This document shows, in pieces, positions 27,174-33,831 of a stretch of 64,000 nucleotides of DNA; within the stretch, counting starts at the first letter, position 1, and each line of letters starts with the position of its first letter. The notes beneath the pieces are model-generated. The model searched no databases. It saw only the letters and a list, made by a program, of their open reading frames with translations, and was not told where the DNA came from. The stretch is from a virus. Lineage: Duplodnaviria > Caudoviricetes. The DNA is taken from positions 23,264 through 87,263 of IMG/VR virus record IMGVR_UViG_3300020576_005098; one strand, given 5' to 3'. A program made the position numbers and the translations under genes.

Positions 27174-27317
27174 CTAGTAACAAAGTCCTTGACAAGGAAA
27201 AGGTGATAGAGTAAAAGAGAAAGTGTCCTGAATGGAAAGGGAGCAGCCTGCAAAGCTGAAGGGATAAAATCCCAACAAGAGTTTGATTCTCTTCTTTCTC
27301 TCTGGATTGTGATAGAC

Positions 27318-28933: not shown

Positions 28934-29322
28934 GGGCCAATAAAGGTTTCGACAGGGAACAAAGTTGGTTGCGGGTATGACCGTTGGTTGATAACAACGT
29001 AAACACTATCAAAAAAACACAAACGCGAACGACAATGCCGTTCCAGCCTTTGCCCTCGCTGCCTGAAAAACAGTGAGAAGCAGGTCATCTCACAAGGTAC
29101 CGACCCATCTGATGGTTGGGTGAGATGCGATAAAGTCAGAAAAACCTCACAGTTGCTTTCGTGTCGGCTGTGTTGTAGAAAATCACACGGATTTTGATTC
29201 TGACCGATGACACTTGCTCATGAGTGCCGATAGAATCAAAAAAACCCAAACACATGAGAAACGTCATAAACACCGTTACTGATAGAGTTTTCTGGACATG
29301 GGTTCGACTCCCATTTGGTCCA
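28934..29322 (+). ncRNA. ssrA: tmRNA
   Basis: GGGCCAA/TTGGTCC acceptor with G3.U70, GGTTTCGAC D-analog, T arm ATGGG-TTCGACT-CCCAT, tag ORF 29025-29066 ANDNAVPAFALAA*. Confidence 0.93.
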
Positions 29323-29325
29323 ACT

Positions 29326-30204: not shown

Positions 30205-30278
30205 TAAACCATAGCTCAATCGGTAGAGTTCCACAGCGAAAGCTGAGGAGGATGCGGGTTCAAATCCCGCTGGTTTGT
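30205..30278 (+). ncRNA. tRNA-like RNA, anticodon arm capped by GAAA tetraloop
   Basis: Intact acceptor, D and T arms; arm TCC-A-CAGC-GAAA-GCTG-A-GGA. Confidence 0.65.
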
Positions 30279-30293
30279 CATTTGTTTGTTTCC

Positions 30294-30365
30294 GGGGTCA
30301 TAACTCAGCGTTGGCAGAGTGCGGCTTAAAAGCCGTGGTTGCGGGTTCGAATCCCGTTGGCTCCA
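30294..30365 (+). ncRNA. tRNA-Ala-like RNA lacking a 7-nt anticodon loop
   Basis: GGGGTCA/TGGCTCC with G3.U70 and A73; arm CGGCT-TAAA-AGCCG. Confidence 0.7.
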
Positions 30366-31309: not shown

Positions 31310-31394
31310 GGAAGCGTGTTCCGAATGGTAAGGAAACAGCTTGGAAAGCTGTCGTGGGGCAACCCACATGCAAGTTCGACTCTTGCCGCTTCCG
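31310..31394 (+). tRNA. tRNA-Ser(GGA)
   Basis: GGAAGCG/CGCTTCC, ACAGC-TTGGAAA-GCTGT, V arm. Confidence 0.92.
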
Positions 31395-31424
31395 CTATCT
31401 TTCTTAGAATAATATCACAATGTT

Positions 31425-31712
31425 GGGCCGATAGGTAAACGGTTATACCGGGCGACTTAGACAAAATATGAGCCTTGTTTGGGAAAAGAAACCAAACAAG
31501 TGGACGCGATAATATCGGTGAAACTCCTTTGCTAGATTGGAAGGACAATACCGAGGGAATCAGACAAAAAGTCTGAGCCCGTAGAGAGCAGATGATCGCG
31601 CACCTGAAATGGTGAAGATGTGCTCCAGACCACAAACACCCCCGTGTGCCAGAGTAATTTGGTGTGGTAAGATAATCGCTTATTCCCAGTTCAACTCTGG
31701 GTCGGCCTACCA
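31425..31712 (+). tRNA. tRNA-Ile(TAT) interrupted by group I intron (exons 31425-31458, 31672-31712)
   Basis: GGGCCGA/TCGGCCT-A-CCA; anticodon stem GGCGA/TCGCT; spliced loop CTT|ATAA. Confidence 0.85.
31459..31671 (+). mobile_element. group I intron (IC3-like, 213 nt, no ORF)
   Basis: IGS TGAGCC, P3 CGCGAT/ATCGCG, P4 TCGGT/ACCGA, P7 GAGCA/TGCTC, R GTAGAGAGCA, S AAGATGTGCTCC, terminal G. Confidence 0.88.
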
Positions 31713-31749
31713 ACAAACAAATTCTATCAACCCCAACAAAGGAACTGTT

Positions 31750-32046
31750 ATGTCTTGGAAGTGTTTTGAGTGTGGTGCCGAAGTGACATCATGTATCATT
31801 GATGGATACCAAATCGGAGATAGATTGCTGGAAAATGTGCCCATTTTGGTGACAGAACGTAGCGAAGGAAACCTGGATTTTCGATTTGATCCAGAATTTG
31901 ACGGTTACACCATCAAGCTCAACAATGAATATTGGATGCAAAAGGCGAAAAAAGAATTTCGCAGTATTGATCTTGTAGCAATTCATTGTCCAACACCAGG
32001 ATGCGACGGTGACGAAGCAGAGAACACTTACATGCCTGACGAGTAG
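31750..32046 (+). CDS. small Cys-containing hypothetical protein
   Basis: Start moved to ATG 31750 (MSWKCFECG); upstream part of track ORF is intron/tRNA. Confidence 0.6.
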   Translation: MSWKCFECGAEVTSCIIDGYQIGDRLLENVPILVTERSEGNLDFRFDPEFDGYTIKLNNEYWMQKAKKEFRSIDLVAIHCPTPGCDGDEAENTYMPDE

Positions 32047-32067
32047 GAACAATCATACCTAAGACGC

Positions 32068-32994
32068 ATGAAATCCATCTCTTTGGAACGTTTGTTGTTT
32101 GAGCGTGTTGATCTTGAAAAAATCAATGCGATCCGACAAATGTTCCAAGAAATCAAAACAAACGTCCTCACCATCCCAGCAACCCCAGCGGCTTTCAAAA
32201 GAAATGGCTGGGAAGCAGAGGAAGGATTGTTGAAAACCCTTGTTGTTTCGGAAGTTTATGCGGAATCTGTTTTTGATAATCTCTTCATAAGCTTCGAACC
32301 TAAGATGTCTCAGTTGGCATGGGCAAACACAAATGAAGATGGAGACCTTCTCCTCGCATTTCGTATTTCACCAACTCCATCAAACATCAAAACAAAAAGC
32401 CAATTCAACTCCTGGTTTGTGAATGAAATAAAGACGTGGTTCCAGCAACCAAGTTCTGAATCTCTTTTCGTTCATGAATTTATTCATCTTCTGGACATTG
32501 CCAGAATTGGTGATGTGTTTTTCGACATTGTTGAGAAAACAACAGCCTTGGATAAACCTCTTGCCGACCTTAAAAAGGAAGCTGAGAAGTTGAAAGCGGT
32601 GTTGGACGGAACCATAAAGGGAACACCAGAGAGAAAGCAAGCCCTTGCAAACTTCAGAAGGGTGGCTGCAAAATGGAAGGAAACAAAGGAAAGGCGTTGG
32701 AAGGATTATCAAGGCTCGCCTGTTGAGACCAACGCCTTCTTTAACCAAACCATTGCTGCTGTCAAAGAAAAAGCTTCTAGGGCCCTTAGAGAGCGTGGTA
32801 AATTGGCTGCCTTGGGTGTGTTGGGAAACAGCCCGCAAGAATTCGTTTCAGTGTTCGAAAAAGAACTCGCAAAAAATATTCGACTTGATTTACTGGATTC
32901 GAAAACTCTGAAAAATTTTCAAAAGAGGGCATCGGTTTTGTATGATCAGTTGGTAGATGAGATTGAGACGGGGAAAGAGCGCAGCCTTGTATAA
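32068..32994 (+). CDS. HExxH (zincin-like) domain protein
   Basis: LFVHEFIHLLD...ETNAF; N-term LERLLFE; ATACCTA upstream. Confidence 0.7.
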   Translation: MKSISLERLLFERVDLEKINAIRQMFQEIKTNVLTIPATPAAFKRNGWEAEEGLLKTLVVSEVYAESVFDNLFISFEPKMSQLAWANTNEDGDLLLAFRISPTPSNIKTKSQFNSWFVNEIKTWFQQPSSESLFVHEFIHLLDIARIGDVFFDIVEKTTALDKPLADLKKEAEKLKAVLDGTIKGTPERKQALANFRRVAAKWKETKERRWKDYQGSPVETNAFFNQTIAAVKEKASRALRERGKLAALGVLGNSPQEFVSVFEKELAKNIRLDLLDSKTLKNFQKRASVLYDQLVDEIETGKERSLV

Positions 32995-33052
32995 AGTTCT
33001 TGACCTGAAAAATGAGTGGTGGTAAGGTTGGTTCATCGGTGAGAGAGAAAGA

Positions 33053-33733: not shown

Positions 33734-33745
33734 TCGGTTTTGGTT

Positions 33746-33820
33746 ATCACACAAGCTCTGATGGTGGAGTAGCTTACCCTTATCGTAAGCACGGACAAGG
33801 TTCGAATCCTTGGTGTGATA
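33746..33820 (+). ncRNA. tRNA-like RNA with 6-bp anticodon stem and CCTTATC loop
   Basis: ATCACAC/GTGTGAT, CAAGG-TTCGAAT-CCTTG, GCTTAC/GTAAGC. Confidence 0.65.
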
Positions 33821-33831
33821 TGTTTGTTTGT

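Follow-up and report, generated by a model that had tools for sequence, protein, structure and literature searches.

A 2014 review placed all phage introns described to that date in protein-coding genes, despite the many tRNA genes that phages carry (PMC3984707), and Devoto et al. (2019; PMC6784885) were aware of no prior report of introns in phage tRNA genes. Bacterial tRNA introns are a family listed as subgroup IC3 in Williams (2020; bioRxiv 10.1101/2020.01.27.920355), which cites the group I intron database for this assignment. A literature search made outside most subscription journals returned no published report of a group I intron in a phage tRNA gene. The locus described here is very probably such a case: a large phage carries an intact tRNA gene into which a 213-nt IC3-like group I intron is inserted between U34 and A35, the intron being without an open reading frame and a member of the bacterial tRNA-intron family. 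It speaks against the generalization that phage group I introns reside only in protein-coding genes and tRNA introns only on bacterial chromosomes (PMC3984707). What is new is the host gene, tRNA-Ile(UAU), for a familiar kind of bacterial tRNA intron; the mechanism is not new.

The phage tRNA array and its split gene

The source is an 87-kb IMG/VR virus record with a completeness of ∼34% (CheckV), of which a stretch of 64,000 nt, termed the window, was analysed. The gene content of the record includes a T4-type portal, a large terminase, a DnaE-type polymerase, a GroEL-like chaperonin and an SbcCD-like fusion. By portal protein, the closest cultured relative is Microcystis phage Mel-JY01, with 39% identity. 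An array of 32 tRNA genes and one tmRNA gene is found at 26.9-34.1 kb of the window. Default ARAGORN and Rfam leave positions 31396-33052 of the window blank, and the split tRNA-Ile(UAU) gene is missed both by default ARAGORN and by the Rfam tRNA model. When introns are allowed (ARAGORN -i), the interval 31425-31712 is called as tRNA-Ile(tat), split at position 34/35 by a 213-nt intron ('gactt-Intron-ataat'); the preliminary description of the locus, read from the letters without database searches, had the coordinates and the intron length right. The 3′ exon ends with the discriminator A31709 and an encoded CCA at 31710-12. Positions of all features are collected in Table 1.

Table 1. Exons, intron and intron helices of the split tRNA-Ile(UAU) gene; positions are those of the window, and percentages are cells paired in the alignment of 19 phage introns
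Feature	Position	Strand	Composition and evidence
tRNA-Ile(UAU) 5′ exon	31425..31458	+	acceptor 5′ strand, D arm, anticodon stem 5′ strand GGCGA, C32 U33 U34; ARAGORN -i; same in L059
Group I intron, 213 nt, without ORF	31459..31671	+	omega-G 31671; ARAGORN -i, R1 model 204.5 bits, MFE fold
tRNA-Ile(UAU) 3′ exon	31672..31712	+	A35 U36 A37 A38, stem TCGCT, variable loop, T arm, acceptor 3′ strand; ARAGORN -i; same in L059
P1	31456..31472	+	exon CUU 31456-58 with internal guide GAG 31470-72; U34.G31470 wobble at 5′ splice site
P10 guide UAU	31467..31469	+	pairs with AUA 31672-74, the first three 3′ exon bases
P2 hairpin CTTGTTTGG / CCAAACAAG, 9 bp	31474..31500	+	8/9 pairs change on both sides; 97.7% paired
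P3 CGCGAT/ATCGCG	31505-10 with 31595-600	+	6/6 pairs change on both sides; 98.1% paired; encloses P4, P5, P6, P6a
P4 TCGGTG/TACCGA	31515-20/31549-54	+	invariant across the family
P5	31525-29/31541-45	+	paired in the window and in the MFE fold; aligns poorly across the family
P6 GGG/CCC	31555-57/31578-80	+	hand-read fold; in the MFE fold
P6a	31561-65/31571-75	+	paired in the window and in the MFE fold; aligns poorly across the family
P7	31584..31626	+	G31584, bulged A31585, GAGCA 31586-90 with TGCTCC 31621-26; 99.1% paired, 2 covarying pairs
P8 CACC/GGTG	31601-04/31611-14	+	96.1% paired; 3/4 pairs covary
P9	31629-33/31664-68	+	97.9% paired; 2 covarying pairs; in the MFE fold
P9a hairpin inside P9	31637-39/31644-46	+	in the MFE fold
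P9b hairpin inside P9, GUAA loop	31648-53/31658-63	+	5/6 pairs covary; in the MFE fold

Other members of the array also display unusual features. The tRNA genes of the array enclose a phage-encoded tmRNA (window 28934-29325; Rfam 113 bits; tag peptide ANDNAVPAFALAA). Two tRNA genes, at 30205-30279 and 30294-30365, are given the two-base anticodon 'aa' by ARAGORN; the sequences between the stems, C-GAAA-G and TTAAAA, respectively, are apparently 6-nt anticodon loops, and the gene at 30205-30279 may be the tRNA-Phe(GAA) of the array. A 'tRNA-Stop (tta)' reported by ARAGORN at 33745-33821 has the loop CCUUAUC, with neither U33 nor a purine at position 37, and may act as an ochre suppressor or else be a tRNA-like RNA that does not decode. 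Stop codons in 40 long open reading frames are ordinary (TGA 21, TAA 11, TAG 8). At 27217-27301, a tRNA is detected by Rfam (42.5 bits) and none is called by ARAGORN; the loop is CUGCAAA, with anticodon GCA (Cys), and the variable arm is seemingly long, which would be unusual for tRNA-Cys.

Intron fold and splice junction

Covariation was assessed on 19 non-identical related phage introns (alignment A1), with helices P1-P10 drawn by hand and with P7 and P10 entered as pseudoknots. In this alignment 89.3% of cells pair, as against 38-43% when the partners are slid by 1-3 columns. Pairs that change on both sides number 37 of 64, and none of 500 shuffles reached the observed covariation score. 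Both the U.G pair and a C-G pair of P1 are present in 19 of 19 introns, and all 19 have the omega-G as last intron base. The intron folded alone has a minimum free energy (MFE) of -66.7 kcal/mol (z = -4.75; 0/200 shuffles fold as well), and the MFE structure gives the hand-read P2, P3, P4, P5, P6/P6a, P8 and P9/P9a/P9b.

The P1 helix is lengthened by an A31459-U31469 pair. P7, presumably the guanosine-binding helix, makes a pseudoknot with P3 and encloses P8, and its bulged-A layout agrees with the SS_cons line of the Williams (2020) seed alignment. Only GAUG (31591-94) separates P7 from the 3′ strand of P3, with no P7.1/P7.2. This compact architecture, which also includes P2 and a GNRA-capped P9 hairpin, fits that of the bacterial tRNA introns in the Williams (2020) seed alignment. 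Every helix proposed in the preliminary description (P1, P3, P4, P6, P7, P8 and P10), together with the terminal G, was recovered in the 213-nt intron. On comparative grounds the element is identified as a group I intron in a tRNA gene, an assignment backed by covariation across the 19 phage introns.

The Rfam model RF00028 (Intron_gpI) gives no match at E ≤ 10 in 31380-31760. None of its 12 seeds is bacterial, and seeds taken only from bacterial tRNA/tmRNA introns raised the yield by 20%, according to Williams (2020). Because the seeds are without any bacterial member, the miss is read as a limit of the model and not of the intron. Other Rfam matches in the same interval, sau-53 (21.9 bits; gathering threshold 100) and a snoRNA, are weak and were treated as chance. 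Since default tRNA finders and the Rfam group I model miss such genes, phage tRNA inventories are undercounted, AUA readers and UGA-reading suppressors included.

Within ±4 nt of the ARAGORN call, a single placement has U at -1 with G at omega. The resulting loop, C-U-U|A-U-A-A, is 7 nt long and carries the anticodon UAU, with the intron between U34 and A35. Junctions giving GAU or UAG are ruled out, as no other placement combines U(-1)/G(omega) with a 7-nt loop. The P10 guide consists of the three intron bases directly 5′ of the GAG guide, which pair with the first three bases of the 3′ exon. Guide and 3′ exon read TAT/ATA in all four UAU introns, TTT/AAA in the UAA intron, TTG/CAA in five of the eight UCA introns and TAG/CTA in one UCU intron. 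This variation with the anticodon lends independent support to the 3′ splice site and to UAU. The junction CUU|AUAA and anticodon UAU, proposed at the outset with the 3′ side fixed by P10, are thus borne out by the unique placement and by P10 covariation. A guide that tracks the anticodon also offers a simple natural series on the re-targeting of a ribozyme between related substrates.

In the pre-tRNA, exon CUU can pair in P1 with the guide GAG, with the U34.G wobble at the cut site, next to a full P2-P9 core with its P3/P7 pseudoknot, and the 3-bp P10 aligns the 3′ exon. Free guanosine would attack after U34, and the freed U34 3′-OH would in turn attack after G31671. Joining of the exons would yield the 75-nt tRNA with loop CUUAUAA, anticodon UAU and encoded CCA. 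Charged by the host IleRS, this tRNA would read the rare AUA codons of the phage without lysidine (TilS).

Identity of the spliced tRNA

The spliced RNA is drawn by ARAGORN as a 75-nt class I cloverleaf with the loop CUUAUAA, and its acceptor stem opens with a G1.U72 wobble. It contains A73, C4-G69, U12-A23, C29-G41, A37 and A38, which Nureki and colleagues reportedly identified in 1994 as identity elements of the Escherichia coli IleRS. An annotated E. coli tRNA-Ile shares the whole anticodon arm, GGCGA-CUUAUAA-UCGCU, in a blastn match that is statistically weak (E = 7); two matches were found in 28 Gb, each annotated as tRNA-Ile. This equality upholds the earlier assignment of GGCGA/TCGCT to a tRNA-Ile2-type arm. 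The two matches come from 2 of 5,426 genomes. In one of these, an annotated chromosomal tRNA-Ile at E. coli NZ_CP098183.1 3550561-3550636 (L481:1485-1560) has the anticodon TAT; E. coli tRNA-Ile2 genes normally have CAT at the anticodon. On viral contigs, 32 of the 36 matches to GGCGACTTATAATCGC are uninterrupted tRNA-Ile(tat) genes. UAU tRNA-Ile, initially called rare, is so in bacteria but, by these uninterrupted matches, common in phages.

AUA makes up 43 of 707 isoleucine codons (6%) in the 40 long open reading frames of the phage. One of the two CAU tRNAs of the array is initiator-like, with a C1xU72 mismatch and a GGG/CCC anticodon stem, and the other is elongator-like. As these look like an initiator and one elongator, the UAU tRNA is the only evident AUA reader in the array. 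Independence from TilS would follow from U34. A UAU tRNA-Ile is a poor substrate of the E. coli IleRS and, on E. coli ribosomes, also misreads AUG (PMC3575796), so the function of the phage tRNA would depend on the host; recognition of UAU by IleRS differs between species (PMC3575796). In Bacillus subtilis, a UAU tRNA-Ile reads AUA with little misreading of AUG (PMC3919564). Neither TilS (PF01171) nor a class I synthetase (PF00133) was detected in the 87-kb record, which says little because the record is only ∼34% complete.

Relatives of the intron and its persistence in phages

A covariance model built from phage introns only, termed R1, has a single match in the window (Table 1). In a cyanobacterial genome, that of Floridaenema evergladense, R1 finds the classical introns of tRNA-fMet (93.2 bits), tRNA-Leu(UAA) (L363; 60.3 bits, E 6.7e-15) and tRNA-Arg(CCU) (54.3 bits), and from these matches the window intron is placed in the bacterial tRNA-intron family. 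To collect phage relatives, viral contigs were scanned twice for conserved core motifs and the matches passed to ARAGORN -i, which gave at least 28 tRNA genes split by an intron of this kind. The phage family splits tRNAs with the anticodons UAU, UAA, UCA and UCU, always after U34. In a viral scan with the bare 14-mer CAATACCGAGGGAA, the matches listed were mostly chance and of use only after filtering; in one with TATGAGCC..ATATCGGT, at least 116 new contexts among the matches listed (L059 left out) held no split tRNA and were all chance.

In the viral contig L059, the exons are identical to those of the window, and each of the six intron differences falls in a loop or keeps pairing (A-U to G.U, G.U to A-U). 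In the flanks, identity is 88% over the 600 bases upstream and 52% over the 600 bases downstream. Intron and exons thereby appear to be under purifying selection. Further split tRNA-Ile(UAU) genes, with different stems and the same arrangement, are found in L001 (LR745208, 485 kb) and L163; LR745208 is also the one partial blastn match of the locus among cultured and GenBank phages, and the spliced tRNA has no blastn match in the phage collection. An intron-less ortholog ('empty site') was not found among the viral-contig arm matches, the best candidate sharing 53 of 72 bases. No homing endonuclease was detected, as the intron has no open reading frame and the four neighbouring ones have no meaningful Pfam or PHROG match; a single borderline PHROG match (E 0.0087) is of unknown function.

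A tree of 31 introns (206 columns) places the window intron beside that of the near-identical L059. Next nearest by path are a phage tRNA-Leu(UAA) intron (L177, path 0.62) and then the phage Ile(UAU) introns of L163 and L001, in a tree whose backbone is not resolved. For the most part, introns from the same kind of host tRNA fall together. The cyanobacterial trnL intron groups with the fMet and Arg introns of cyanobacterial origin, in a clade other than that of the window. The preliminary description had pointed out a match to the trnL(UAA) intron in insertion position and 5′ sequence, which is confirmed with the cyanobacterial intron of L363 (AGA..AAA..TGAGCCTTG at the 5′ side), and had proposed that a trnL-type intron moved into a tRNA-Ile. 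With the trnL intron in another clade and the backbone not resolved, such a transfer is possible. The list of four known bacterial tRNA settings in that description is outdated, as 21 are given in Williams (2020), with Arg, Lys, Thr and Ser tRNAs split at 34/35 among them.

Several relatives are worth recording in their own right. Trp-like phage tRNAs are split at CUU|CAA by the same family (L124:725-1004, L130:608-885, L165:650-924, L196:8908-9186, L197:685-963 and L203:1860-2135). These have an AGGGG... acceptor stem and several have an encoded CCA; splicing would yield a UCA anticodon reading UGA. Their P1 departs from that of other family members in a U-U mismatch and in an additional hairpin within its loop. 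Two phage tRNAs that ARAGORN labels tRNA-SeC (L025:6521-6823 and L113:67-370) have a long variable arm and are split at CUU|CAAA to give UCA; they may be selenocysteine-like or class II suppressor tRNAs. The same 34/35 intron family is found in tRNA-Arg(UCU) of L131, L137, L141, L142, L178 and L202 and in the tRNA-Leu(UAA) at L177:1619-1909; some of the split Arg and Leu genes are labelled Ser(gct) or Cys(gca) by ARAGORN because the intron is placed one base off. A second group I intron is present ∼4 kb from the split tRNA-Arg at L142:4374-4593 and L202:10176-10395 (99-104 bits to R1), and the tree groups these second introns with cyanobacterial tRNA introns and not with the phage clade.

The core motif ATCGGT..ATACCGAGGGAA..CCGTAGAGA abounds in metagenome-assembled genomes (MAGs) of CPR/Patescibacteria and is found also in some DPANN-labelled MAGs (L240-L359). 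Among the matches listed, 19 of 122 contexts fall within tRNA genes, for the most part tRNA-Asp at position 37, and the rest are presumably in rRNA or other genes. For CPR/Patescibacteria, the matches listed (at least 120 loci) include split tRNA-Asp, Met, Thr and Leu, and no tRNA-Ile(UAU).

Most likely the intron is a passenger, selfish yet harmless, from a family that lives in phage tRNAs having U34. A benefit to the phage would add to this reading rather than replace it, and is improbable. The intron could gate the AUA-reading tRNA, with output controlled via guanosine, Mg2+ and correct folding, or it could shield the anticodon loop, so that host anticodon nucleases or wobble-modifying enzymes could not act on it before splicing. 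Such a role is consistent with the strict conservation of the intron while the flanks diverge (L059), with occupation of the same site in several phage tRNAs, all of them U34, and with a report that phage tRNAs evade anticodon-loop nucleases (PMC10264068). However, a selfish ribozyme that must splice to be tolerated would be equally conserved, and the locus gives no direct sign of regulation. The P1 U.G pair requires U34, which is sufficient alone to explain the U34 bias of the host tRNAs, and most phage tRNA-Ile(UAU) genes are intron-less. A broader form of the idea, to which we likewise give little credence, is that 34/35 introns are kept in U34 tRNAs (Ile-UAU, opal-reading UCA, Arg-UCU, Leu-UAA) because the anticodon forms only on splicing, which would time the supply of the decoder or hide the loop from nucleases and modifying enzymes; the family would move between tRNAs with little changed beyond the 3-nt P10 guide.

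It is very unlikely that the intron fails to splice, or splices too poorly, and that the locus is a disabled tRNA gene. The blindness of the Rfam group I model to the intron would fit this, and loss of a reader of the rare AUA codon is perhaps tolerated, but the core helices, the U.G pair, the omega-G and the bulged A of P7 are all intact; in addition, the L059 changes keep pairing with identical exons, and three divergent phage lineages retain the design. Both the identity pairs named above and the anticodon arm fit tRNA-Ile, phages commonly carry uninterrupted tRNA-Ile(tat) genes with this arm, and the B. subtilis tRNA provides a precedent for AUA reading with little misreading of AUG (PMC3919564). 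A spliced RNA that carries another amino acid, reads AUG together with AUA, or is a decoy or other non-decoding RNA is accordingly the least probable outcome, even with the species-dependent recognition of UAU by IleRS, the reading of AUG by unmodified UAU on E. coli ribosomes (PMC3575796) and the several odd tRNA-like genes in the same array.

Comparison with known phage and tRNA introns

The T4 td, nrdB and sunY introns and those of Twort and SPO1 are phage self-splicing group I introns like that of the window, but they are in protein-coding genes (PMC3984707); unlike them, the window intron resides in a tRNA gene and has no endonuclease open reading frame. The Azoarcus tRNA intron is also a small IC3 element without an open reading frame and is found in an AUA-reading isoleucine tRNA with the same type of anticodon arm. 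It is inserted at 36/37, after the anticodon of a CAU tRNA that needs lysidine, whereas the window intron lies inside a UAU anticodon.

The cyanobacterial and plastid tRNA-Leu(UAA) intron, 'Leu.3Ug' in Williams (2020), occupies the same site, CUU|A between U34 and A35. In the trnL intron of L363, the P1 U.G pair with the guide ..TGAGCC.. and the P2-P9 layout without P7.1/P7.2 are as in the window, and the 5′ ends are alike, AGAAAACTGAGCCTTGG in trnL (CUU|AGAAAACTGAGCCTTGG...G|AAAA) and AGACAAAATATGAGCCTTG in the window. The host tRNAs differ, a class I Ile(UAU) of a phage as against the class II Leu(UAA), and so does the core: P4 is UCGGUG/UACCGA and P6 is GGG/CCC in the window, whereas trnL has UCAGGG/UCCUGA and GCC/GGU. 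In the tree, the trnL intron is not a sister of the window intron.

Other introns in the seed alignment of Williams (2020), Arg.3Ug, Lys.3Ug, Thr.3Ug and Ser.3Ug, share with the window the 34/35 site, the U(-1)/G(omega) rule and a U34 host tRNA. The core motifs ..AAU.CCGA-G.., GUAGAGACUA and AAG.UAGUCC are common to the window intron and to the 3Ug introns in that alignment. An Ile(UAU) setting is not among the seed names of this survey, which covers bacterial and archaeal genomes and not phages; the present locus adds Ile(UAU) to the tRNAs known to host a 34/35 intron. The 'enigmatic' tRNA introns of Lak megaphages (Devoto et al., 2019; PMC6784885) are likewise tRNA introns of huge phages, and that of the window is, by its predicted fold, a complete group I ribozyme.
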